Positions 12,812-52,499 of a stretch of DNA of 64,000 nt are shown here, piece by piece. The stretch spans positions 1 through 64,000 of the IMG/VR virus record IMGVR_UViG_3300045591_000029. One strand, given 5' to 3'. Positions within the stretch are counted from its first letter, which is position 1, and the number at the start of each line of letters is the position of its first letter. Origin of the DNA: a virus (taxonomy: Duplodnaviria; Heunggongvirae; Uroviricota; Caudoviricetes). The position numbers and the translations under genes are program-made. The notes under the pieces were generated by a model, which had not been told where the DNA came from, searched no databases, and worked only from the letters and a program-made list of their open reading frames with translations.

Positions 12812-14185
12812 TTAAATTTTATCAGCGATAGAAGCAATCTTACTACGATAGATATTCTTAAGAGTTACCTCTCCATAAATATCCTTACCTCTAAATACTT
12901 TTGATACTCTCCGCATACCGTTATTTGCACCAGAGAAGTGAATATCATCAACCTGAGTTTTTTCATCACCATCAATAATACAAATACAATCTTCGCCAAC
13001 ACGCTGTAGAGCGAGTTTCATCAGTGTGCGGTCAAGGTTTTGAGCTTCAGAAATATAGATACCTGCGTTCATACCAGAAGTATCATAACCACGAATATCA
13101 GAGAATGGTAGTAAAACTAATTTACCTTCTGCGATTAGTCTCTCAACTTCCTCTCGACCGCCGAACTTACTACTTAGCAAGTTGCCAATCTGAGAGTCAA
13201 GTAGCTTTTCGTCTTTTGTTCCCGGATAATATCCGAGACGAGCAGAGTTAGCAGTAGCAACAGTATTGCAGAAGATAATAATTTTATCTAGTTCATGGGC
13301 TTCCATTTTTGCCATTAAATAAGCCAGAGAAACGAAAGTCTTTCCGCTACCAGCTGGACCTTTAACAAGAGTTAGCTTGTTATTACGCAAACTATCAAAT
13401 AGCATCTTTTGATAAATATCTCCAGAGTATGGAGAAATCTTACCAAACCACTTAGAGTTAATGGTCTTAGAAGAAAGGTATCTGAACTCTTCGCCTGTCC
13501 AAACCCGCAAATCAACAATCTCTCCATTGCTATTTTTCAGGATAAGATACTGTCCTGGTAATAGGTTAAAGGAATTATCGTTCGGATTCTGATAAAACTC
13601 TGCTAGAGCTTCGTCGCTATAAGTAACTTCAATATAACCAGTATAATTGTCTACTTCTTCTGGAACGCTCTCAATCATTCCATTACCAAAGAAGCAGTTA
13701 GCGATATGCTTTAGACTTAAATCGTTAGTTACAAAGACAATATCTTTTTCTTTGTCGCACGCAATGGCATCAGACAAGATGCGAGTATCATCAGTAACAT
13801 CGAAACCCGCTTCTTTAATTACGAACTCATTGTCTACTTTGTGCGGGATTACTTCATACTTATCTGGATATTCTTCAAACAAATGAAGCAATAGACGAGC
13901 TGAATACTTGATGTCAGCATCCTTATTTGAAGCCGTCTTAATTCTCTCTAATTCTTTTAATGTAATTGAGGAAACTAAGAAGGGCTTCTTGTCCTGCTCA
14001 AATAGACTTTCTCCGGCCAACAAAAGGGAGCAAGTATCGTAGAAGTATCTATCTGTTGGAAACCGTACATCATAGTTCATGTTCATCTTCCTCTTCGTAT
14101 GTAGTGGCAAATCCGATTGCCCTAGATTGAGTTTCTCCTTCACTAAGTTTATTAATCGCAACATTGTGACGAACAATTCTTTCAT
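12812..14185 (-). CDS. phoH: PhoH-like ATPase with N-terminal PIN-like domain
   Basis: LVKGPAGSGKTFVSLA Walker A, PhoH family architecture; 457 aa. Confidence 0.75.
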   Translation of the reverse strand: MKELFVTMLRLINLVKEKLNLGQSDLPLHTKRKMNMNYDVRFPTDRYFYDTCSLLLAGESLFEQDKKPFLVSSITLKELERIKTASNKDADIKYSARLLLHLFEEYPDKYEVIPHKVDNEFVIKEAGFDVTDDTRILSDAIACDKEKDIVFVTNDLSLKHIANCFFGNGMIESVPEEVDNYTGYIEVTYSDEALAEFYQNPNDNSFNLLPGQYLILKNSNGEIVDLRVWTGEEFRYLSSKTINSKWFGKISPYSGDIYQKMLFDSLRNNKLTLVKGPAGSGKTFVSLAYLMAKMEAHELDKIIIFCNTVATANSARLGYYPGTKDEKLLDSQIGNLLSSKFGGREEVERLIAEGKLVLLPFSDIRGYDTSGMNAGIYISEAQNLDRTLMKLALQRVGEDCICIIDGDEKTQVDDIHFSGANNGMRRVSKVFRGKDIYGEVTLKNIYRSKIASIADKI

Positions 14186-16536: not shown

Positions 16537-17223
16537 TTATCCGTAGTAACCTCCATCGGGAGGATCTCGTTTATAAGAGGTGCAAAGTTCAGGGATACAG
16601 CCACAATTAGGATAGGTATACACGCACTTATCGCATCTAATCACAGGCTTTGGTTTTTCAACCTACAGCTGAGCCTTGCACTCTTCTACCTTCTCGTTCA
16701 TTTCTTTGATAACATCATCAAGGAGAACGGGATAGCACTCGTGGGAATCGACTCCCACATGATACATGAAAGGAATTTCATTGTAGAAATTACTTGTTTG
16801 ATGGGTATGACCAAAGAGATTGCAAGTCACCTGCTTAAGTGACTCTTTCTCAAGATTGCCTGTTAAAGTAGGATAATGAGAAGCATAGAAATGATACTTG
16901 CGATAAGTGAAAGCATAAGCGTCAAACACGGGAATACCAGCTCTAAGATAGGCTTCTCTGCGGTTAGCAGTATCATGGTTACCACCAACCACGAGTTTAC
17001 GACCATTCATGCGATTGAGCAAAGCAATCCCTTCCTCAAGCTTATCAGCTCCGCCGAGCATGAGGTCGCCGCAGATAATAAGAGTGTCTTCAGGGGCCAC
17101 GCACTCATTATTCTTCTTTACGATAGTCTCATTCATCTCTTCAACACTCTCAAAACCACGAGCTTTCCAGATAAATTCCTTATCGTGATTATAATGGTAA
17201 TCTGATGATAGCCAAATTTTCAA
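16537..17223 (-). CDS. calcineurin-like metallophosphoesterase with TAG read-through C-terminal Cys-rich extension
   Basis: GDLMLGG...GNHD motifs; ORF ends at TAG 16663-16665, same frame continues VEKPKPVIRCDKCVYTYPNCGCIPELCTSYKRDPPDGGYYG to TAA. Confidence 0.55.
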
Positions 17224-17229
17224 TATAAG

Positions 17230-17934
17230 TCACTTCCTTTTGGGTGTTGTAATGGCTTCAATTCTCGACATTCCATTTTTCATACGCTTGTATACCGAAT
17301 TTTTTGAAATATTATAAATGGAACACCAATCTTTGAAATTGTGAAATTCTCCATTGATTTCAATTAACTTGCTGGCTTCTTCTATGGGGATGTTATTTGG
17401 AATGATTTCCAGTGTTTCTGGATTATATTCCCTAAATATAAATCCCTTTACTGTTTTATATCTGTTACTACCGGATGCGCATTTTCTAATACTAGCTCTA
17501 TCAGTTCCTAACTCATGAGCTGCGGCAGTTATTGTAGGAAAAAATTTCTTTTCTCCACTTGTTTCTGAAATGGCACAAATGGGTGTTGCCAATTTAGCTC
17601 GTACTTCTGGATCATCAAATGGATATTCTGTGTTTAGAGTTTGATTATATCCATGCTAAGAGGTTAAGCTATTATATTCAATGATTGCATCATGCTCTAA
17701 TTTATATCTTTCTTCTGGAGTTTGAATATCTTTTATTAAGATTTGAAAATCAAAATTCTCTATACCATATTTTCTTATGGCTCGATATAATGGATATTCA
17801 TATCCTGCGCGAGATTCGAGACGAGCATTTTGCTAATGTTCATACCACCTTGTTGTAAATCCTCGTGACTAGTCACTGGAACCAATATAGGTTTTATGGT
17901 TAATCAGATTTTCGATTTTATAAATGAAATACAT
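17230..17934 (-). CDS. GIY-YIG homing endonuclease with C-terminal HTH (3 in-frame TAG)
   Basis: MYFIYKIENLINHKTYIGSSD*SRGFTTRWYEH*QNARL...; C-terminal part equals track ORF 17230..17592. Confidence 0.6.
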
Positions 17935-18023: not shown

Positions 18024-18557
18024 TTAATGGTGCACACGCACCTCGATATTAGAAAATCCCCAATTGGTCTTAGGAAACTCTTTTTCAGTAGGAATAGAAA
18101 ATCCCTTCTTCATCTTCTTAATTGCGGAATCGGGGATTCTGGCAACGCCAGTCCGCTGAGCATTACGCTCAAGAGCGGTTTCGACAGGAACATCAATGAC
18201 TTCAAAGGTCAATTTGGTATGCGGATCTGCGATCAACCGACCAAGGAGCTTTGCACGAGAAGCGGGGCTAATATGAGTCGCATCCGCAAACACAACATCA
18301 ATATCAAGTTCCATAGCTTCATTAATCTGTCGGACAAATTCGTCGAATACTTCAACTTCTTTGTCAAAGTAGCTATCACGATCGGTCAAGATGGACTGCC
18401 GCACGAAATCTCTGGAAACTACACAAGTGGTGCGATGCTCTTCTTCAATTCGGGCTACCTCTTGCTTCACCCAAGTAGATTTTCCGCTACCGGGTACCCC
18501 AACCATGACTTTCAGTTCAGTTGTCATTCTTTTCGCCTCCATCCATTTTTGCCCCAC
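18024..18557 (-). CDS. P-loop polynucleotide kinase (Pnk-like kinase domain)
   Basis: VMVGVPGSGKSTW Walker A, AAA_33-like kinase layout; 177 aa. Confidence 0.55.
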   Translation of the reverse strand: MGQKWMEAKRMTTELKVMVGVPGSGKSTWVKQEVARIEEEHRTTCVVSRDFVRQSILTDRDSYFDKEVEVFDEFVRQINEAMELDIDVVFADATHISPASRAKLLGRLIADPHTKLTFEVIDVPVETALERNAQRTGVARIPDSAIKKMKKGFSIPTEKEFPKTNWGFSNIEVRVHH

Positions 18558-19305: not shown

Positions 19306-19803
19306 TTAATTAGTTTGATCAGTAAAATAGACTTGTGAAAGTTCACCAATGTCATCAATCTCACAATCGTTTATTTCAAATGGCCAATCTACCCATAAAT
19401 CAATATGATTTTCTAAAAAATTTAATGGATCTTTCTTAAAAGTTTTATAATCTTCCTCAGATAGCTCAAGTTCTCCATGGTAATATCCGCCTCGTAGATA
19501 ACCAGTAACCCAATCTACTTCTGCATCTATATTAACTTTATGAGTTACCTCAGTTGGATTGTCAAGAGAGATATAATATTTTTTGCCATTGATTTTTTTC
19601 CAGAATGAATAACTACTTTTTGGATAGCCAACTTTTTTTTCTAGAATATCTTCCTTGGTATTAGATTGCAACACAATAACTGGGTTTTTACGCGGATCTT
19701 GACCAATTGGGTGAAAATCTACTCCATCGGCGCCGGTAATTTCAAACCATTCTTTCCATCCTGTTCCTTTTTGCCATTCAGCCATTATTATTCCTCCTGA
19801 CAT
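19306..19803 (-). CDS. hypothetical protein
   Basis: 165 aa intact ORF. Confidence 0.45.
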   Translation of the reverse strand: MSGGIIMAEWQKGTGWKEWFEITGADGVDFHPIGQDPRKNPVIVLQSNTKEDILEKKVGYPKSSYSFWKKINGKKYYISLDNPTEVTHKVNIDAEVDWVTGYLRGGYYHGELELSEEDYKTFKKDPLNFLENHIDLWVDWPFEINDCEIDDIGELSQVYFTDQTN

Positions 19804-20612
19804 TGGATTAGAGATTCGATATACTCGCGTCCTTCTCCGACAAATAGCGGGATACTTTTATCAATTTCCCAGCTAGAGCGAGTTACACCATCGGTCTCAG
19901 TTGTAACCTTGATGCAACAAGAGCCATGCTTATACATAGGATGAAAGTTTTCCCAAGAAATCCCTTTCTCCGTGATTAGCATCTCTTTGATTTTCTCACA
20001 AGACTTACCTTGGAGTTCTTTATGAGAGAAATTAGCCTGGCCTACCATTTGAATAGAATTGCGGGTTGCATCTAGCTGACGCCAATAGACGAGGTTGGTG
20101 ACCTCTTCTTTGGGAATATTGAAGCAACGAGCATCAAACATGGCGCCCATTTGTGTTTTTACTGCATAAGTCTGGCCCAAATCATCTTGTGGGTAAGGGT
20201 TATCCATAGTCGCATGAGCGGCATAATAATCTAGATTCCTATGCCGGACTCCTTCATTAAATGCTTTATTGAAAGCCATCGTTGCCATAGAAGCAGCGAT
20301 AGAGCACATTTTCTGTACCTCGTAATCAAACCAAGCAGAGCTGTTGAGCCGCTTGTAATCAACAAGGATAAGAGTGATTTCATCACTTTGTGTATACCCT
20401 AACACGCACCCTTGAATGTTTTCACAGAGATATTTCATGGTATCCTGCATTGTGTTAATCAATACATCATCAAAAGGCTTGCTGAAACCACGGGTAAAGG
20501 TGTGGAAAGCTTTACCGTCAATGCGAATTGCAACCGGTGTACGACGCATTAGCTTAGTCTTAGGAACGCTTTCGTAATCTTTCATTCTTTTAGCCAGATC
20601 TGACGTATCCAT
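19788..20612 (-). CDS. Thg1-like protein (tRNA-His guanylyltransferase family; 3'-5' nucleotidyl transferase for tRNA 5'-end repair)
   Basis: VAIRIDGKAFHTFTRGFSKPFDDVLINTMQDTM...LGYTQSDEITLILV matches Thg1 core (RxDG..FH.F...KP.D...QSDE). Confidence 0.6.
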   Translation of the reverse strand: MDTSDLAKRMKDYESVPKTKLMRRTPVAIRIDGKAFHTFTRGFSKPFDDVLINTMQDTMKYLCENIQGCVLGYTQSDEITLILVDYKRLNSSAWFDYEVQKMCSIAASMATMAFNKAFNEGVRHRNLDYYAAHATMDNPYPQDDLGQTYAVKTQMGAMFDARCFNIPKEEVTNLVYWRQLDATRNSIQMVGQANFSHKELQGKSCEKIKEMLITEKGISWENFHPMYKHGSCCIKVTTETDGVTRSSWEIDKSIPLFVGEGREYIESLIQCQEE

Positions 20613-21808: not shown

Positions 21809-22090
21809 TTAAAATAGAATATCGCGCTCAAACTGAACGCTATAAGCAGAGCTGGGATGGCTTTTACATCTATTAACCCATTCACAATGCCCCAGCACAG
21901 CTTCTTCTCTAGTGGCATAACGAGCCACAATAATCATATTATGGTCAGCGACCCAAACCGCGGTTTCATAACCCTGGTCTGCGGTTAGACAAGTGTCGAT
22001 AGTATAATCATCGACTTGATCGCGCCCAACGAGATCAGCGTCGTGATTGTTGCAAGCAATGCCAAACATTAAACTCATAAGATTATCCAT
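21809..22090 (-). CDS. hypothetical protein
   Basis: 93 aa. Confidence 0.4.
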   Translation of the reverse strand: MDNLMSLMFGIACNNHDADLVGRDQVDDYTIDTCLTADQGYETAVWVADHNMIIVARYATREEAVLGHCEWVNRCKSHPSSAYSVQFERDILF

Positions 22091-22814
22091 TGCGTTTCCT
22101 CTTTTCCTTCTTTTTCGTAGCTACATCAATAGTCTGTCGATGTACAGAGTAGATTTTTGAGGTAAGCCCATTCTTCATCAATTTATTTAGATTGACCGGG
22201 CTGTAGTTAATTGCGTCAGAGCAAACATTCAGATGTCTGTCGTCATTTTTATGACGACGATCATGGATATGACCATGAATATTAAACACCCAAGGCATCA
22301 TAGGAAGAGGTTCATGGGAGAGAATAAGTTTTTCTCCAATCATGAGAGGCCCCTCATAGATCTCGTCAAAGAGATTATTGTCTGCGGAAACTTCCCAATA
22401 ATCAAAAGGAAAATTGAAGTCATATACATCAGTAATGGAATACTGACAATCGGGGTAGATGCGTTTCATTTCATCAAGAGCCTCAGATTTCTGAAAGACT
22501 TCTTTGGGGAACTTACGAGAAATCTTTTTGCGCTCATAATTACTGCGGCCGGCGTCATGGTTCCCCATAATGAGCACCTTATAACCACGAAGTTTAGCGC
22601 ACATAGCCGGGTCGCCGCAGTCTCCCAAGATAATCAGAACATCTTTCTTACCAACTTTGCTATTGATAAGTTTAACCTGCTCTTCATCGGAAGGACGACC
22701 TGGAGTTCCAGCGGCGAGTTCTTTATCACCAAAATGAGGATCTGAATATACCCAAGTTGTCTGTCCATTCCATCTTTCGTTAAAAACTTTATACAGTCCG
22801 GGAATCATCACCAT
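22083..22814 (-). CDS. calcineurin-like metallophosphoesterase
   Basis: GDCGD...GNHD...HGHIH motifs. Confidence 0.7.
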   Translation of the reverse strand: MVMIPGLYKVFNERWNGQTTWVYSDPHFGDKELAAGTPGRPSDEEQVKLINSKVGKKDVLIILGDCGDPAMCAKLRGYKVLIMGNHDAGRSNYERKKISRKFPKEVFQKSEALDEMKRIYPDCQYSITDVYDFNFPFDYWEVSADNNLFDEIYEGPLMIGEKLILSHEPLPMMPWVFNIHGHIHDRRHKNDDRHLNVCSDAINYSPVNLNKLMKNGLTSKIYSVHRQTIDVATKKKEKRKRNG

Positions 22815-23551
22815 TCCTCCTTCTTAGAAAGGTCAATTGCGTCGGCAGCATTAAAGATATGTTCATCAAAGCTATCTAAATCTAACAATACAGTATAACC
22901 AGTATACCAGCTTGCACAGTCCAAATCAACTTTGTGGTCTTGTGCATACCACCAAGCTCCACCATCCCAATCTGGAATTTCATCGCTCCAATTATTTCGT
23001 TTTAACAGATATGGAATAGGAGTATGACCGTGCACGCAAATTTCTTTATCACCAAAAATAGGTTCCTTAGAGTGCCAATGGCATCTATCCCAAAGTAGAT
23101 CGTCGTCATTAGGGATAGCATCATCCTGCATTGGATTAAAGCCAGCATGACAGAGATGGATAGTGATTCCCTGTTCATTTACATATTTCTTATAGGTTGG
23201 TAGTTTCTTGAGATAATTCCACCAGCCAGTTTTCATTGGTTCTAAAAGCCAGTCAAGGAAAGTTTCTCCACCACCATTTTGAGAAAGCAAAGCAAAATTT
23301 TTCCCAAGGACTCCGCATCCTTCTCTCCGCACTTCATCTTCCATGGCTTTTACCAGCATATCTTCGTGATTACCTTTAAGATAGATAAAACGCTTATCTT
23401 GAGCAACTGCCTTGATAGTCTCCCAAGGATTTGGACCTCTATCTCCGGCATCGCCGAGAAAATAAACCGTATCATCGGGTTGTAAGAAATCCTGAATCTG
23501 CTTCAATAGATCCAATCTACCGTGCAAATCTGAACACGCATATGTTGCCAT
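22808..23551 (-). CDS. metallophosphoesterase (PP2B/PrpE-like Ser/Thr phosphatase or Ap4A hydrolase family)
   Basis: DLHGR...GDAGDRGP...GNHE...HGHT motifs. Confidence 0.7.
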   Translation of the reverse strand: MATYACSDLHGRLDLLKQIQDFLQPDDTVYFLGDAGDRGPNPWETIKAVAQDKRFIYLKGNHEDMLVKAMEDEVRREGCGVLGKNFALLSQNGGGETFLDWLLEPMKTGWWNYLKKLPTYKKYVNEQGITIHLCHAGFNPMQDDAIPNDDDLLWDRCHWHSKEPIFGDKEICVHGHTPIPYLLKRNNWSDEIPDWDGGAWWYAQDHKVDLDCASWYTGYTVLLDLDSFDEHIFNAADAIDLSKKEEW

Positions 23552-25404: not shown

Positions 25405-26667
25405 TTACTCTTGAGCTTCCTCAATATCAGGACTGTCAGAAGTTTCCTTAATGATACCTTCAAGGACGCGGAACTCGTAAGTCTTAGACTTGAAAGCAGT
25501 GAAAGTGCGACGGTTGACGATACGAACCACAACGCCCTCTTTAACATGAGTTTTGCCGATAGGATCGGCCAAGTCCTCGAAATACTTGTTAATGCGGTCC
25601 TGCAGGTCCTCGGCAGTAGTGAACTTGAAGTTCTCAATCACCGGGACACGATTAAAGCCATGCTTCTCACACCAAGCGGTAATCTCGTCAGGAGTCCACT
25701 CACGCTGACCGTTCTCGGAAGTGATGCGATAAATCCACATATGAGACTCACCGGGCTTGCAGCCGTAGGAGAAGATAGACTTTTTACCGAACAGCTTTTG
25801 GAAAGCCTTATCTTTTAGCTTGGAGTTATCGCCGATAGGCATGATGGTATCGTTCTCAGAGGGGCCGTAGTACCCTACTACCTCGTAGAAGACCTCCATA
25901 CCGGGATCAAGATGGGGTTTCAATGCCTCATGGTGAGACATACGGAATAGATCATTGCCGTAGTAGCCCTGAGAGTTCTCAGTTACAACACACCGGCGCG
26001 TACCGAGAACATAAGCCTGCTTCAGACGCTTCTTCATATGAAATAGACGACGGAAGAAGCCATTGGGAAGCTCAGCAAAGGTGTTCATGGAACGCTGAGA
26101 AGTGCCATGCATCTTAAGAGTCATATTCAGCTCATCACCTGGACGGAACTTATCCAGATTGTATGCAAGCTGCTCAGTGTCAGTATGCATTGCAAACTCA
26201 GGATAGGTAATACCCTCTGCCTTACGACCCTTGTAGGAAGTTTTAGGAGTGGTGCTCGGAGTCTTACGCTTAGGAATATACTTACGGCAGAACTCCTTGT
26301 CATTGATAGTGTTTACCTTGTCGCCGTCCTCCCAGTGCTGATCGCCAAAAGTCTCATAGATGCGCTCAAGAGCGATGACGATGCCAGAACTCTCGTTGCC
26401 ACGAAGCTTGATAGCCCGCACGTGAGAACTATTTTCCAAGTATCCGCCCTGAGGAGTGCCATCGAGATTTTTTCGATATAAGGTGAAAGCATCACCAAAC
26501 CATCTCTCAATTTCTCCGTCGGTAGGAAGATAAAGCACTAGCTCATTTTCTTTCATGTTGGGTCCAACAATAACCCCTTCGTTAAAACAATCTGCCAACC
26601 ACAGATTATCAGAATTAGGGTCTTTATGGAGATTATTTAGTTTTGTCACTAGAGCGTAATAAGCCAT
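25405..26667 (-). CDS. RNA ligase, Rnl2-like family (nucleotidyltransferase)
   Basis: motif I LKMHGTS (KxHG as in T4 Rnl2 KIHGT); 420 aa. Confidence 0.6.
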   Translation of the reverse strand: MAYYALVTKLNNLHKDPNSDNLWLADCFNEGVIVGPNMKENELVLYLPTDGEIERWFGDAFTLYRKNLDGTPQGGYLENSSHVRAIKLRGNESSGIVIALERIYETFGDQHWEDGDKVNTINDKEFCRKYIPKRKTPSTTPKTSYKGRKAEGITYPEFAMHTDTEQLAYNLDKFRPGDELNMTLKMHGTSQRSMNTFAELPNGFFRRLFHMKKRLKQAYVLGTRRCVVTENSQGYYGNDLFRMSHHEALKPHLDPGMEVFYEVVGYYGPSENDTIMPIGDNSKLKDKAFQKLFGKKSIFSYGCKPGESHMWIYRITSENGQREWTPDEITAWCEKHGFNRVPVIENFKFTTAEDLQDRINKYFEDLADPIGKTHVKEGVVVRIVNRRTFTAFKSKTYEFRVLEGIIKETSDSPDIEEAQE

Positions 26668-29895: not shown

Positions 29896-30729
29896 TTATG
29901 ATAACTCTTTATATTCTTTTGCCCAAGGAGTATCATCAAAATAAAAGTTAGGAGATTTATTTAGCCACCATTCATGCTTAAATGTTTTTTCTCCATTCCA
30001 ACGGTTCCAAATTGTATCTAACTCCTCAATATCTTGAAATAGCATCTCGCAATGAGGTCTCTCAACTCGATCAGAGTGAAAATGAGCAAAAAGCCATACC
30101 TCCCAATCAACTTTACTCTTGATATCCTCAAGCCAAAGTTCCATACTTTTATCTACTTTGGATTGGTCAAGACCAGAGAGAAACAAATCTCTTGGCTCCC
30201 AAGAAATGGGACAAGTATGGGTTAGGACAAAATCATAACGCTTACCCTCAACCCATGCGCCAATTTCATCCATTTCCTTTTTGGTTAGCTGTTCATCCTT
30301 GAACCAGCCAGTCCAACTATCTGTATCTTCTGGACGATCTCTAAGTCGATACCACTTATCTACGGAATACGCTCCGCCGATAGCAAAGACAGAGTAGCCA
30401 TGAATGTTATAACTCTCTCCATCAAAGAGGTATCTGATATTCGGAAACTCTGGCTCATAATAGACGCCACCATCGACGTCTTCATCATACATTTGCTCCA
30501 TGGAAAGATTTTCTGGACGCTCTTCATGGTTTCCGCGAACCGCGTAAATGCGGAAGCCTGTATTGTTTACGTTTCTCTTATTCTTGCGATCGGTCTTATT
30601 CAGATAGAAATTAAGCCCCATATCGCCAAGAATAATCAATGCAGTTTCATCAGGAGGATATCCAATATGACTAAGTCTTTCAAGGACTTGACCATGAGTG
30701 TCTCCTGTAACGAGCCAGTTCTTAATCAC
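29896..30729 (-). CDS. calcineurin-like metallophosphoesterase
   Basis: GDTHG...GDMG...GNHEERP motifs; 277 aa. Confidence 0.7.
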   Translation of the reverse strand: MIKNWLVTGDTHGQVLERLSHIGYPPDETALIILGDMGLNFYLNKTDRKNKRNVNNTGFRIYAVRGNHEERPENLSMEQMYDEDVDGGVYYEPEFPNIRYLFDGESYNIHGYSVFAIGGAYSVDKWYRLRDRPEDTDSWTGWFKDEQLTKKEMDEIGAWVEGKRYDFVLTHTCPISWEPRDLFLSGLDQSKVDKSMELWLEDIKSKVDWEVWLFAHFHSDRVERPHCEMLFQDIEELDTIWNRWNGEKTFKHEWWLNKSPNFYFDDTPWAKEYKELS

Positions 30730-49145: not shown

Positions 49146-49236
49146 TGGCAGCCCCGCTGGGGTTCGAACCCAGACTTACTCCTTCAGAGGGATACGGTTT
49201 TAGAGACCGCCGTGCTAACCATTACACCACGGGGCA
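49146..49236 (-). tRNA. amber suppressor tRNA, anticodon CUA (loop CUCUAAA), class II scaffold (about 20-nt variable arm), G73, unpaired U1.U72
   Basis: plus strand ...gatacggt-tttagag-accgc...: AC stem gcggt/accgt (G.U closing), rc loop CTCTAAA; acceptor tgccccg/cggggct, D arm gtgtaatggttagcac, T arm ctggg-ttcgaac-cccag, CCA encoded. Confidence 0.7.
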
Positions 49237-50165: not shown

Positions 50166-50418
50166 ATATTTTGGAAGCTTCCCCATAGGAGGTTTACCAA
50201 CCCAAGCAGCTCTAGTGTTTTTCTTTTCTGCCGCCAAAACTACAAAAACCGGCACAAGTTCATTTTGCTTTACCTTTCATTTTGAAAGACTTTAAGGAGT
50301 TCTTGCTTACCTCGTTTTCAAAGTCAGAAACTTGTAGCTATTTCCTGCCACTAAAGCGATATAATAATTTCATCTGTTAGCTACTCAGATACATAATTAT
50401 TATAACCTTTAGATTTTG

Positions 50419-50959
50419 TGGCTGTCCCGGAGGGATTCGAACCCTCGACCCCACGATTGCTTACACATCAGCTTACCAGTTCTTTACTACTTCCTCCAAT
50501 TCATAGTCTTTGGCCCAAGTGATACCTCTAACTTGACCATTTTTTGTAGGAAGAATACGAAGTCTTTTGTCAGCTCCACACTCTCCTACTGGGATTAGAT
50601 AACACTTTCCATTAAAAGTAGTCACGAAATAATCAATTTCTTCGCTAGTATATTGATGATGAACAATTTTTCCATCTTTTCTATGACAACTTCTACCAGA
50701 AAAGACAAAAGAAGCACCATCATCTTCGGTTCGTGATGTTTTTGCTTGAATTTTAATGAATTTTCCATTGACATCAACAACAAAATCATAACGCTCACAA
50801 TCTCCATAGGGAGTTAAAACATTATAACCAAGTTTAGCAAATGCCAACATCGTTTCAAGTTCTGTAATGTTACCTTTTTGCTTACTATTCATTTTATTTT
50901 CATAAAAACGATAAGGTCAGGTAAACAGTCGCGTGCTCTGCCAGCTGAGCTACAGGACA
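50419..50959 (-). tRNA. split tRNA-Asn(GUU) (Asp-GUC not fully excluded): 3' exon 50419..50458, insertion/intron about 50459..50923, 5' exon about 50924..50959
   Basis: 5' exon tgtcctg-ta-gctcagctggcagagc-a-cgcga-ctgtt; 3' exon aa-tcgtg-gggtc-gaggg-ttcgaat-ccctc-cgggaca-g-cca; acceptor and AC stems pair only across the 465-nt insertion. Confidence 0.55.
50473..50892 (-). CDS. PD-(D/E)xK nuclease (paralog of 41044..41454) encoded inside the tRNA-Asn insertion
   Basis: TELETMLAFAKLGYNVLTP....RYDFVVDVNGKFIKIQAKT; C-terminal LIPVGECG...LPTKNGQVRGI conserved between both copies. Confidence 0.55.
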   Translation of the reverse strand: MNSKQKGNITELETMLAFAKLGYNVLTPYGDCERYDFVVDVNGKFIKIQAKTSRTEDDGASFVFSGRSCHRKDGKIVHHQYTSEEIDYFVTTFNGKCYLIPVGECGADKRLRILPTKNGQVRGITWAKDYELEEVVKNW

Positions 50960-52030: not shown

Positions 52031-52062
52031 CTTGATATATTCTTCCCTCCATAGGTGTCAGT

Positions 52063-52499
52063 CTAAGAATGACAATTAGGGCATAAAAATCTTAAATTTT
52101 CAAGCCTATGGTCATCATTTACTCCATTGATATGGTCTAATTGCAAACTAATGGGTTTACCTAACCATGAATCAATACCACAACAAGCGCATTTATATTC
52201 TAAATATCCTTCTCTTACTAGTCTGGACTTTAGACGACTAATATTATGATAAGTAGAATGTTCTACTAAAATTTCTTCAAGTGTATATTTTGCATTTGCC
52301 GCAGTTAATTTCTTTGTCCCAAAGTGGGAAATATCGCAAGATAATTCTTGAATACGCTCTTTGAGGATATCTGTAGAAGAACCACCTTTAGTAGTTAATC
52401 CCAGCATCCTTAAACAATCTGAATAACTATTCGCCTATGAAACAATGGTACGAAATTCTTCATCAGTAACTTGATAAATTTTACTTCTTCTAGCCATAT
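52063..52499 (-). CDS. HNH homing endonuclease (1 in-frame TAG); track ORF 52063..52407 is the C-terminal part
   Basis: MARRSKIYQVTDEEFRTIVS*ANSYSDCLRMLGLTT...LQLDHINGVNDDHRLENLRFLCPNCHS. Confidence 0.6.

Follow-up and report, generated by a model that had tools for sequence, protein, structure and literature searches.

Does a phage tRNA gene that is interrupted in its anticodon loop by a homing endonuclease gene (HEG) still yield a tRNA, and if so, what would take the insert out? To our knowledge, the tRNA introns so far described in bacteria all splice themselves, most by far as group I introns and a few as group II introns, and tRNA splicing by proteins is seen as a trait of archaea and eukaryotes. 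According to a 2014 review, no phage intron known at that time lay outside protein-coding genes, even though phages have many tRNA genes (PMC3984707). Here, we analyzed a split tRNA-Asn gene in the first 64,000 nucleotides (hereafter, the window) of the Caudoviricetes record IMGVR_UViG_3300045591_000029. That a mobile HEG-bearing insert occupies position 36/37 of this gene is virtually certain. With much less assurance, we lean towards the view that this mobile unit behaves as a tRNA intron lacking a ribozyme; our confidence in that view as a whole is set by its weakest part, removal of the insert from RNA by proteins.

Results

The tRNA-Asn(GUU) gene spans window positions 50419-50959 on the minus strand and is interrupted by a 465-bp insert at 50459-50923. 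In intron mode, ARAGORN folds a single cloverleaf across the insert, with the acceptor stem tgtcctg/cgggaca (one G.U pair) and the anticodon stem cgcga/tcgtg. The 5' exon (50924..50959, minus strand) comprises tRNA positions 1-36, is collinear with uninterrupted alleles and ends with the anticodon, G34 U35 U36 (50926-50924). The 3' exon (50419..50458, minus strand), placed by ARAGORN and by alignment to the same alleles, comprises positions 37-76 with the CCA encoded. Between them lie a 31-nt leader, an open reading frame and a 14-nt tail. An initial annotation, made from the sequence by eye, had described the two halves as one folded tRNA around an ORF-bearing insert of about 465 bp; its exon coordinates, stems and ORF all hold, as does the single fold.

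What fixes the boundaries of the insert? Eight IMG/VR contigs (L043-L050) contain GAGCACGCGACTGTT joined directly to AATCGTGGGGTC, an exact uninterrupted copy of the gene. These contigs are viral, closely related and represent the same locus, with syntenic flanks that are 92-96% identical to the window, and they lack exactly the inserted stretch. Because bases 50458 and 50924 of the window are neighbours in these alleles, the insert must be 50459-50923 (minus strand), between U36 and A37. There is no target-site duplication. ARAGORN labels the split gene Asp(GUC), a reading that the initial annotation had considered and set aside in favor of Asn(GUU). The eight contigs settle this question, since ARAGORN calls the uninterrupted allele tRNA-Asn(gtt), and relatives of Enterococcus phage EFP01 (see below) also give Asn. 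No second canonical tRNA-Asn is present among the 31 tRNAs of the window, a set that is near-complete.

The ORF (50473..50892, minus strand) begins 31 nt past the 5' junction and ends 14 nt short of the 3' junction. By sequence comparison, its 139-aa product is predicted to be a PD-(D/E)XK homing endonuclease of the I-Ssp6803I family: residues 1-132 of 139 match Pfam PF11645 (E=2.9e-30, 105.5 bits against a cut-off of 26.1), and the protein matches PDB 2OST (E=5e-10). The predicted catalytic residues E11, D36, Q49 and K51 are invariant across 14 diverse homologs that reside in tRNA genes, and D36, Q49 and K51 stay invariant once free-standing homologs join the alignment. Homologous proteins number at least 580 in metagenomes, and the HEG subfamilies have diverged to 27-47% identity. 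Several family members (L020, L039, L040, L056 and L058) carry in-frame stops that could be taken for HEG decay. We reject this reading: all of the internal stops are TAG and the terminal stops are TAA or TGA, which indicates TAG-recoded phages. Nor is a conserved YTGACC the -35 box of the ORF. The matching -10 element ends one base ahead of the ATG, so a transcript from it could not encode the conserved N-terminus with the catalytic E11, and the Y covaries with the opposite strand, which argues further against a -35 box.

A tRNA-Met(CAU) gene in the same window (40990..41520, minus strand) is also split at 36/37, as judged by ARAGORN, Pfam and layout. Its 454-bp insert (41030-41483) contains a HEG (41044-41454) whose product is 47% identical to that of the tRNA-Asn insert and belongs to the same I-Ssp6803I family, in agreement with the earlier proposal that the two ORFs are paralogs and the two genes are laid out alike. 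The uninterrupted tRNA-Met junction sequence is common in viral contigs.

At about 65 related phage loci the layout recurs; the split tRNAs there have 12 anticodons between them (GUU, UUU, GAU, UAU, CAU, UUG, UGU, UCU, ACG, UGG, UUC and UUA), and the insert always sits at 36/37. Inserts measure 450-495 nt, with leaders of 14-45 nt and tails of 6-23 nt. One contig (IMGVR_UViG_3300045988_112927) carries at least three such inserts, and in another (L010) a split tRNA-Asn adjoins a tRNA-Gln with a larger insert bearing a homolog; the following tRNA of that contig is predicted by ARAGORN to hold another long insert, which would be the third. Our scan of bacterial genomes returned five contigs, all from metagenome-assembled genomes, at least three of which (L051, L052 and L054) have a phage-like split-tRNA layout. 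Among the short ARAGORN "introns" of about 100 loci, a small dataset in which absence carries little weight, we found no HEG-less mini-version with the anticodon helix described below.

The cultured Enterococcus phage EFP01 contains an unannotated copy of the element. When joined at 36/37, its exons are 100% identical over 101 nt to at least 29 other Enterococcus Schiekviruses, and the gene is annotated as tRNA-Asn in these insert-less relatives. This identity indicates that the EFP01 copy is recent. Thus, both in the window compared with its eight relatives and in EFP01 compared with the Schiekviruses, the insert is present or absent at an identical site in near-identical genomes, with no duplication. 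Mobility by homing is well supported by these data. The initial annotation had proposed a mobile HEG-bearing family aimed at tRNA anticodon loops, and the PF11645 ORFs, the presence and absence of the insert at one site, and the recurrence at about 65 loci with 12 anticodons bear this out.

The ends of the insert pair with the exon. The initial annotation had noticed that ttac and gtaa, at the two ends of the insert, are complementary. This match is real, and its extent had been understated, as the helix (H1) is 7 bp long. The 5' strand of H1 (50921..50927, minus strand) consists of U33, the anticodon and the first three insert bases (uguu followed by uac), and the 3' strand (50458..50464, minus strand) consists of the last six insert bases (guaagc) and A37, such that U33-G34-U35-U36-u-a-c pairs with g-u-a-a-g-c-A37. 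The 5' junction thus falls within the helix, and the last three bases of the insert complement the anticodon, one of the pairs being G.U. In the full 541-nt precursor, H1 and the cloverleaf are kept in both the MFE and the centroid folds.

A 4-nt match in a single sequence could be due to chance; family-wide covariation cannot be. Throughout the family the last three bases of the insert are complementary to the anticodon, in a helix of 7-11 bp that is stacked on the anticodon stem. We scored H1 at 50 distinct loci whose junctions had been set from the tRNA stems alone, without the use of H1, and found 96.3% of cells paired compared with 58.3% in shuffled controls (0/500) and 37-45% when the strands were slid. 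The pair between position 34 and the last insert base is UA at 23 of these loci, GC at 22, CG at three, AU at one and UG at one, and is never unpaired. H1 therefore covaries with the anticodon across all 12 anticodons. Because H1 contains G.U pairs, the pairing is more readily explained in RNA than in DNA. These G.U pairs also speak against a DNA-level origin of the anticodon complement, as does the fact that fill-in of a 3-nt overhang would produce a direct rather than an inverted repeat.

Inward of H1, an internal loop separates it from a second helix, H2. The 5' strand of the loop (CUGA-C, 50916..50920, minus strand) is box D-like, with YUGA conserved in the Asn/Lys subfamily. The 3' strand (C-UGAUG-U, 50465..50471, minus strand) is box C-like, and its conservation depends neither on the reading frame nor on the stop codon; the ORF of EFP01 even has its TGA stop inside it. 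The Y of YUGA pairs with the G or U that ends UGAUG (C-G in nine cases, U.G in three and A-U in one). A kink-turn has tandem sheared G.A/A.G pairs and an adjoining 3-nt bulge between two helices; here, CUGA opposite UGAUG can form G.A, A.G, U.U and C-G between H1 and H2, with a loop of 1x2 nt rather than a 3-nt bulge. The motif is not found in the Met, Gln, Ile and Thr subfamilies. The 3' motif GCUGAUGU also resembles a hammerhead core (CUGAUGA...GAAA), a resemblance that we discount since conservation is lacking at the A9 and GAA positions and H1 occupies the downstream bases. H2 is formed by cuuauc (50910..50915, minus strand) and gguaag (50472..50477, minus strand), the latter including the UAA stop of the ORF (50473-50475). 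Its positions are 95.6% paired compared with 67.5% in shuffles, and both sides change in 5/6 pairs.

Which enzymes might act on such an RNA? The phage encodes an RNA ligase (PF09414, 25405..26667, minus strand, E=6.4e-10) that shares 41% identity with proteins annotated as RNA ligases in large Bacillus phages and is a candidate sealing enzyme. Pfam searches also detected a polynucleotide-kinase-like P-loop kinase (AAA_33/KTI12, 18024..18557, minus strand), four Metallophos phosphoesterases (16663-17223, 22083-22814, 22808-23551 and 29896-30729) and a Thg1-like protein (19788-20612), and an RlaP protein is encoded as well. Intronless relatives presumably have this RNA-repair set too, so that its occurrence here is not specific to the element. 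The tRNA_int_endo domain of EndA-type splicing endonucleases was not among the Pfam matches listed for 46 ORFs of the window (for the first 23 of these, the best 25 of 34 families), nor did it appear when 20 of the first 23 were rescanned singly; the window is part of the genome.

Discussion

We propose that the element acts at two levels. At the DNA level, the I-Ssp6803I-type PD-(D/E)XK enzyme would cut the uninterrupted tRNA-Asn gene at the anticodon, and repair from an insert-bearing genome during co-infection would copy the 465-bp element between U36 and A37. The carrier would be immune because the insert splits the target. At the RNA level, we infer that the element is transcribed within the tRNA array and that the tRNA body folds normally, while the 3' end of the insert pairs with U33, the anticodon and the first bases of the insert to form H1. 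Together, H1, the internal loop and H2 would make a rod with the ORF at its tip. The two junctions would then lie 3 bp apart on opposite strands of H1, the geometry expected if a dimeric nuclease cleaves both strands of a duplex with a 3-nt 3' overhang. A protein endonuclease may cut at the two junctions, after which an RNA ligase, probably the one encoded by the phage, may reseal the loop to give a functional tRNA-Asn. We favor such protein-based removal, if only modestly, and we know of no enzyme from bacteria or phages that cleaves double-stranded RNA at these positions with a stagger of 3 nt.

Could the insertion instead be purely selfish, never spliced, and the loss of the tRNA tolerated since phage tRNAs are accessory? 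We regard this as rather unlikely, though it is the most serious alternative. Two considerations count against splicing: the intact-looking exons could reflect only repeated homing into fresh genes, and an unspliced insertion could be tolerated, as phage tRNAs are often dispensable. Close homologs are free-standing beside intact tRNA-Asn, -Ile, -Arg and -Val genes in Salmonella phage PM10, Pectobacterium phage My1, halovirus HSTV-4 and cyanophage Sf-FR1, so the family does not need an intron; moreover, the EFP01 copy is a recent arrival. In the same reading, and with the same low probability, the H1/H2 rod would serve the endonuclease mRNA, either through a foldable tRNA body that is trimmed by RNase P and RNase Z and stabilizes the message, or through translation control. 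The ORF stop codon does lie within H2, so that structure and translation interact. However, a closing stem for an mRNA needs only the insert's own ends to be paired, whereas here the 3' end has been refitted to each of 12 anticodons and to U33, with both junctions inside the helix. In addition, some phages carry two to three or more inserts and would suffer a heavy loss if none were spliced, and the split gene is the sole canonical tRNA-Asn seen in a near-complete set.

If proteins do remove the insert, its own homing endonuclease is one candidate for the cut. In this specific version of the preferred explanation, whose probability is contained in that of the broader one, H1 would be an RNA copy of the left half of the DNA homing site. 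I-Ssp6803I is reported to cleave the top DNA strand after N36 and the bottom one between the complements of N33 and N34; the junctions in H1 fall at these places, and such cuts give a 3-nt 3' overhang that corresponds to the anticodon. An enzyme of this type would produce 5'-P/3'-OH ends, which fit direct sealing by an Rnl-type ligase. Against this, the right half of H1 is unlike the DNA target, our alignment revealed no residues that tell in-tRNA from free-standing homologs, and no PD-(D/E)XK homing endonuclease is known to us to cut RNA. On the other hand, tRNA-splicing endonucleases belong to the same PD-(D/E)XK superfamily (PMC3424549). On balance we consider a splicing role for the insert's own enzyme doubtful, and equally improbable as a complete scheme is phage protein-catalyzed tRNA splicing in which a dimeric nuclease, possibly this PD-(D/E)XK enzyme, cuts the anticodon-intron helix and the phage RNA ligase reseals it.

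The insert is very probably not a group I intron. Its non-coding part amounts to 31 + 14 nt, whereas a group I core takes at least about 180 nt, the known group I intron with this HEG family measures 655 nt for a 150-aa ORF (PMC1995217), and among 333 surveyed, the shortest such intron of a bacterial tRNA gene has 184 nt (PMC13011429). With the Rfam group I model RF00028, which would reveal a conserved catalytic core (P3-P9), we obtained no match at E<=10 in the window region, at E<=0.05 in 20 loci or at E<=1 in six further loci. The group I splice-site rule (exon U, intron-final G) is broken: the tRNA-Asn insert ends in C, tRNA-Gln exons end in G36, and in general the insert closes with whichever base (C, A, G or U) complements N34, not with a conserved G. 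A cryptic self-splicing intron, either divergent group I-like or a new ribozyme inside the ORF with H1 as a P1-like splice-site helix, is thus very unlikely: bacterial tRNA genes do otherwise carry this HEG family within group I introns (PMC13011429; PMC1995217), RF00028 can miss divergent ones (PMC13011429), synonymous diversity dips at codons 16-30 and 126-140 and the fold of the precursor is somewhat better than that of shuffled sequences (z=-2.3), but no covariance-model match emerged in the 27 sequences at very permissive thresholds, synonymous sites of the ORF show no extended stretch of constraint (diversity 0.15-0.45 in each 10-codon window), a shared embedded core would hardly survive the divergence of the HEGs, and the guide pairing is supplied by the 3' rather than the 5' end of the insert. 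The lack of room for a ribozyme and the fitting of the 3' end to the anticodon, both absent from the initial annotation, are the features that make this element unusual.

How does the element compare with known systems? Like archaeal bulge-helix-bulge (BHB) introns, some of which encode LAGLIDADG endonucleases, and other eukaryal and archaeal tRNA introns, it is ribozyme-less, and the HEG-bearing ones contain little beyond the HEG. In both BHB introns and the insert, an exon-intron helix with anticodon pairing sets the junctions, and removal would need an endonuclease and a ligase. In the BHB, two 3-nt bulges are separated by a 4-bp helix and the junctions lie in the bulges. The insert has neither 3-nt bulges nor a 4-bp central helix; its junctions lie 3 bp apart in a continuous helix of 7-11 bp, at 36/37 rather than 37/38, and its hosts are bacteria, probably Bacillota, in which, as in bacteria generally, we know of no EndA. 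Bacterial 23S rRNA intervening sequences also replace a hairpin loop, sometimes carry an ORF and have ends that form an extended stem. These are removed by RNase III, and the rRNA fragments remain unligated yet functional. A tRNA nicked in its anticodon loop would, by contrast, need ligation, and the 3-nt stagger differs from the 2-nt stagger of RNase III. The free-standing endonucleases of phage tRNA clusters are homologous (PF11645) and are plausibly the ancestors of the element, although there the tRNA is uninterrupted and no anticodon-pairing helix exists.

The closest relative by enzyme family is the group I intron of Synechocystis PCC 6803 tRNA-fMet, which encodes I-Ssp6803I and shares with the insert its anticodon-loop target and mobility by homing. 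PF11645-bearing group I introns also occur in tRNA-Arg(UCU) of Bacteroidota and Campylobacterota (PMC13011429). These bacterial introns are self-splicing, exceed 500 nt (655 nt for a 150-aa ORF) and sit at 33/34 (PMC13011429; PMC1995217), whereas the phage insert has 465 nt for a 139-aa ORF, sits at 36/37 of a phage tRNA gene and has no detectable ribozyme. The "enigmatic" tRNA introns of Lak megaphages resemble the insert in that they lie in phage tRNA genes, are defined by alleles with and without them and leave the splicing mechanism open; they are short, have no gene for an endonuclease and may code for a tRNA-like element (Devoto et al. 2019, PMC6784885). Short Lak-like inserts occur in relatives of our phage, without an anticodon-complementary 3' end. 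We did not find a description of the element in the literature that we searched. An insert that is almost entirely HEG, leaves no room for a self-splicing ribozyme and pairs with the anticodon suggests a kind of tRNA intron undescribed in bacteria or their viruses.

Why does it matter whether the insert is spliced? If it is, a new RNA-processing activity exists in bacteria or phages, phage RNA ligases gain a role beyond the repair of damage by host anticodon nucleases, and the element is a plausible intermediate between free-standing endonuclease genes and protein-spliced introns. Protein-catalyzed splicing would make this the first class of non-self-splicing tRNA introns outside of archaea and eukaryotes, and if the insert's own enzyme were responsible, a homing endonuclease that also serves as a splicing endonuclease would be at hand in a living system, as a link between restriction-fold DNases and EndA-type enzymes. 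If the insert is not spliced, selfish genes routinely destroy phage tRNAs. Finally, standard annotation misses split genes, as seen from the unannotated copy in EFP01 and the ARAGORN call of Asp for Asn, and phage tRNA repertoires are therefore under-counted.

Results

An endonuclease gene splits a phage tRNA-Asn gene after the anticodon

Read on the minus strand, 50959-50419 holds the two halves of a tRNA gene, separated by 465 bases. The 5' half (from 50959) consists of the acceptor strand tgtcctg, the D arm, the anticodon-stem strand cgcga and the loop bases cuguu, and the 3' half (to 50419) of aa, the stem strand tcgtg, the T arm, the acceptor strand cgggaca, g and cca. Default ARAGORN and Rfam found no match at 50959-50419. 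Intron-permitting ARAGORN returned a single cloverleaf spanning the 465-nt insert at 50419-50959, confirming the proposal in the initial annotation that the exon halves (50419-50458 and about 50924-50959) form one tRNA, and a second, identically organised cloverleaf at 40990-41520 (tRNA-Met, 454-nt insert). A 139-aa ORF (50473-50892) occupies the tRNA-Asn insert save for 31 nt at its 5' end and 14 nt at its 3' end.

The uninterrupted sequence, GAGCACGCGACTGTT followed directly by AATCGTGGGGTC, is present exactly in eight viral contigs that are syntenic with the window (92-96% identity on each flank). Because window bases 50458 and 50924 align to adjacent bases in these contigs, the insert is 50459-50923, between U36 and A37; the target bases are not duplicated and the placement is unambiguous. 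ARAGORN reads the uninterrupted allele as tRNA-Asn(gtt). The earlier preference for tRNA-Asn(GUU) over Asp-GUC was therefore correct, and the Asp(GUC) call that ARAGORN made for the split gene, with the junction one base too far left, is ruled out.

Both window ORFs are full-length matches to Pfam PF11645 (E=2.9e-30 and 1e-22), and their products are 47% identical, as expected from the suggested paralogy of 50473-50892 and 41044-41454. The sole relative with a solved structure is 2OST, which we take to be I-Ssp6803I. I-Ssp6803I is a PD-(D/E)XK homing endonuclease from the group I intron of Synechocystis tRNA-fMet (family link: PMC3424549). E11, D36, Q49 and K51 are invariant across diverse in-tRNA homologs.

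The element belongs to a mobile family

A protein search yielded 580 homologs, the best 120 of which are 78-99% identical, and scans of viral and genome collections yielded about 90 loci. When the acceptor, D, anticodon and T stems alone define the junctions, the ORF lies within a tRNA interrupted after position 36 in 61 loci, with a further 8 from ARAGORN; these counts take in both window elements, and the cultured Enterococcus phage EFP01 (Schiekvirus) twice (L001, L026). Inserts in the 61 stem-placed loci are 450-495 nt long, barring two outliers (434 and 522 nt), with leaders of 14-45 nt and tails of 6-23 nt where the ORF is callable. Twelve anticodons are represented among the interrupted tRNAs: Asn GUU, Lys UUU, Ile GAU and UAU, Met CAU, Gln UUG, Thr UGU, Arg UCU and ACG, Pro UGG, Glu UUC, and a UUA suppressor-type tRNA. 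Junctions outside tRNA-Asn and -Met are based on the cloverleaf and a 7-nt loop.

EFP01 carries a 463-bp copy inside a tRNA-Asn gene that lacks annotation. At least 29 other Schiekviruses contain the exons of this gene fused at 36/37, with 100% identity over 101 nt, and most of them annotate the fused sequence as tRNA-Asn. The window against the eight contigs, and EFP01 against other Schiekviruses, each give an exact presence/absence polymorphism, independently of one another. With both polymorphisms and the endonuclease family, homing is a well-supported and straightforward explanation for mobility. The recurrent layout, the 12 anticodons and these polymorphisms also uphold the initial annotation's view of a mobile endonuclease family that targets tRNA anticodon loops. 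More distant homologs are free-standing genes adjoining intact tRNA genes, after tRNA-Asn in Salmonella phage PM10, before tRNA-Ile in Pectobacterium phage My1, 2 nt after tRNA-Asn in halovirus HSTV-4, and beside an intact tRNA gene in cyanophage Sf-FR1, which suggests an origin for the in-tRNA form.

The insert ends pair with the anticodon

In all loci U33 pairs with A37 and the anticodon pairs with the last three insert bases, and the first 3-7 insert bases pair with those preceding the terminal three. The resulting helix, H1, is 7-11 bp long, stacks on the anticodon stem over the usual 32.38 mismatch and encloses both junctions. The ttac/gtaa complementarity noted earlier at the insert ends is real, but it is too short, as the full helix includes the anticodon. 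When 50 distinct junction constructs are aligned without gaps, 96.3% of H1 cells are paired versus 58.3% in shuffles (0 of 500 reach 96.3%), pairing falls to 37-45% when the partners are slid, and the covariation score is 0.958 versus 0.206. The N34/-1 pair is UA in 23 constructs, GC in 22, CG in 3, and AU and UG in 1 each; it is never unpaired. U35 is paired with G in the Asn group, and such wobble pairs point to RNA rather than DNA pairing.

Past H1 come an internal loop and a second helix, H2 (50910-50915 with 50472-50477), which covaries as H1 does, with 95.6% of cells paired versus 67.5% in shuffles (n=13, in a register chosen from the observed pairing). The loop in the Asn/Lys subfamily sets CUGA against UGAUG, which are the sequences of box D and box C. 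These could adopt a kink-turn-like fold, but we leave it as a resemblance because the bulge geometry does not match and the motif is absent from other subfamilies. For the full 541-nt precursor, both the MFE and the centroid fold retain the cloverleaf and H1.

Could the element simply never be spliced, and be a selfish insertion that inactivates a tRNA the phage can do without? Such an element would be consistent with the free-standing relatives and with the recent arrival of the EFP01 copy. However, anticodon-specific pairing does not, nor does the presence in some phages of several such inserts, and we consider this explanation rather unlikely.

The insert does not resemble a ribozyme intron

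Judged from its sequence, the insert is not a recognisable ribozyme intron. A known group I intron with an I-Ssp6803I-type endonuclease is 655 nt long for a 150-aa ORF (PMC1995217), compared with 465 nt for 139 aa here. Among 333 bacterial tRNA group I introns, those bearing endonuclease genes all exceed 500 nt and the shortest is 184 nt (PMC13011429); the non-coding part of the present insert is about 45 nt. The Rfam group I model found no match in the split tRNA-Asn region at E<=10, in 20 loci at E<=0.05 (L010 among them), or in six further loci at E<=1, including the ~800-nt variants L081, L085, L090, L091 and L097. Synonymous diversity in 14 Asn-subfamily ORFs is 0.15-0.45 in every 10-codon window, with its minimum at the extreme 3' end, overlapping H2; these ORFs contain no long silent-site-constrained block of the kind expected of an embedded core. 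Group I junction rules are also broken, as tRNA-Gln exons end in G and the final insert base is the complement of N34, whichever base that is. Given this small non-coding part, the missing matches and constrained block, and the junctions, a cryptic ribozyme hidden within the ORF is very improbable.

Discussion

We class the element as a mobile, endonuclease-bearing tRNA intron, a known kind, in a new ribozyme-less, anticodon-pairing version. Group I introns with this endonuclease family occur in bacterial tRNAs (PMC13011429). Phage introns known by 2014 were all in protein-coding genes (PMC3984707), and short 'enigmatic' introns of Lak megaphages were described as the first in phage tRNAs (PMC6784885). 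In the literature covered, we found no description of an endonuclease-filled, ribozyme-less tRNA insert with an anticodon-pairing helix. Should protein-dependent splicing be demonstrated, the element could count as categorically new in bacteria and phages.

How might such an element persist? At the DNA level, the endonuclease would home it into uninterrupted tRNA genes of co-infecting phages, a well-supported step. At the RNA level, H1 may offer both junctions, which lie within it on opposite strands 3 bp apart, to a double-strand-specific endonuclease; cleavage would leave the anticodon as a 3-nt 3' overhang, after which the nick in the anticodon loop would be closed. We favor this role for H1 because an mRNA closing stem needs neither junctions so spaced nor an insert 3' end that is re-tailored to each anticodon.

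Phage RNA-repair genes are usually taken to counter anticodon nucleases of the host; those of the window would suit splicing equally. They include an RNA ligase (25405-26667), whose nearest cultured relatives are in large Bacillus siphophages, and a PNK-like kinase (18024-18557), together with four calcineurin-type phosphoesterases, a Thg1-like protein and an RlaP-type nucleotidyltransferase. The same region encodes a PIN-PhoH fusion (predicted RNase and ATPase; 12812-14185, minus strand). The window is part of a genome, and a further tRNA-Asn or a splicing enzyme may be encoded outside it.

Which enzyme might cut? RNase III leaves 2-nt overhangs, unlike the 3 nt needed here. I-Ssp6803I reportedly (Bonocora and Shub, 2001) makes DNA cuts that flank the anticodon and leave 3-nt 3' extensions, the same geometry as H1 gives to the two junctions. 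Along its left half, H1 reproduces the DNA target as RNA, and the PD-(D/E)XK fold is common to tRNA splicing endonucleases (PMC3424549). That the homing enzyme doubles as the splicing enzyme is possible but unlikely.

Other features of the tRNA arrays

Larger anticodon-loop inserts of ~790-860 nt, roughly 350 nt beyond the usual length, occur in L010 (499-1405), L081, L085, L090, L091 and L097; that in L010 lies in tRNA-Gln by manual reading (Leu per ARAGORN) and encodes a longer, 209-aa homolog. Short inserts at 36/37 in L043 (6717-6853; 61 nt, tRNA-Gln), L091 (3010-3155; 71 nt, tRNA-Glu) and L033 (3122-3242; 44 nt, tRNA-Thr) hold either a hairpin like a T arm or a mini-tRNA with a terminal CCA. 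They are similar to the Lak-phage 'intron that may encode a tRNA' and make up a second class of inserts at 36/37 in phage tRNAs. The tRNA at 42825-42949 (minus strand) has a ~48-nt insert in its anticodon arm (ATAATCAAGGTCTAGTAAATAGACCACGACAGCAATCACTATGATTTT), nearly identical to one that a related phage carries in another tRNA (L047 10074-10198); neither has an ORF or an anticodon-complementary end.

A tRNA-like gene at 47955-48029 (minus strand; Rfam 49.7 bits) has an 8-nt anticodon loop, CUUGUUAA, which is the tRNA-Asn loop plus one U (a 4-base anticodon per ARAGORN). Candidate readings are a quadruplet decoder, a decayed copy and an Asn allele that the endonuclease cannot invade. Adjoining the element, a stretch of ~200-250 bp that separates tRNA-Leu(UAG) from the 3' end of tRNA-Asn (50169-50418) is present in the window, L046 and L047 and missing from L043, L045, L048, L049 and L050, a second indel polymorphism. 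The tRNA at 49146-49236 (minus strand) has a CUA anticodon (amber suppressor) and a long variable arm (Pyl per ARAGORN). TAG is recoded within this phage group, since endonuclease genes of the related phages L020, L039, L040, L056 and L058 contain in-frame TAG codons, in L056 replacing the otherwise invariant Tyr29.

A phage tmRNA (45841-46181, minus strand; Rfam 76 bits) lies within the tRNA array, and L023, L028 and L081 also have one. ROOL RNA adjoins the arrays of L025 (3111-3417) and L085 (2922-3435; Rfam 142 and 267 bits, respectively). YrlA (Y RNA-like) matches in L017, L031, L091 and L097 are sub-threshold, and the window encodes DUF2828/DUF7788 proteins. Matches to HDV-like (F. prausnitzii type) and twister-P1 ribozymes, also sub-threshold, occur at L017 1973-2040, abutting the split tRNA-Asn, and at L015 717-782 and 1083-1140, the latter abutting tRNA-Met; they recall the 'theta' ribozymes described next to tRNAs of gut phages (PMC10879173). 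Elsewhere in the window, an ORF with an I-HmuI NUMOD-like domain (17230-17592, minus strand) is a homing-endonuclease remnant, and a remnant at ~52040-52280 resembles genes for HNH endonucleases in T4-like and Enterococcus phages.
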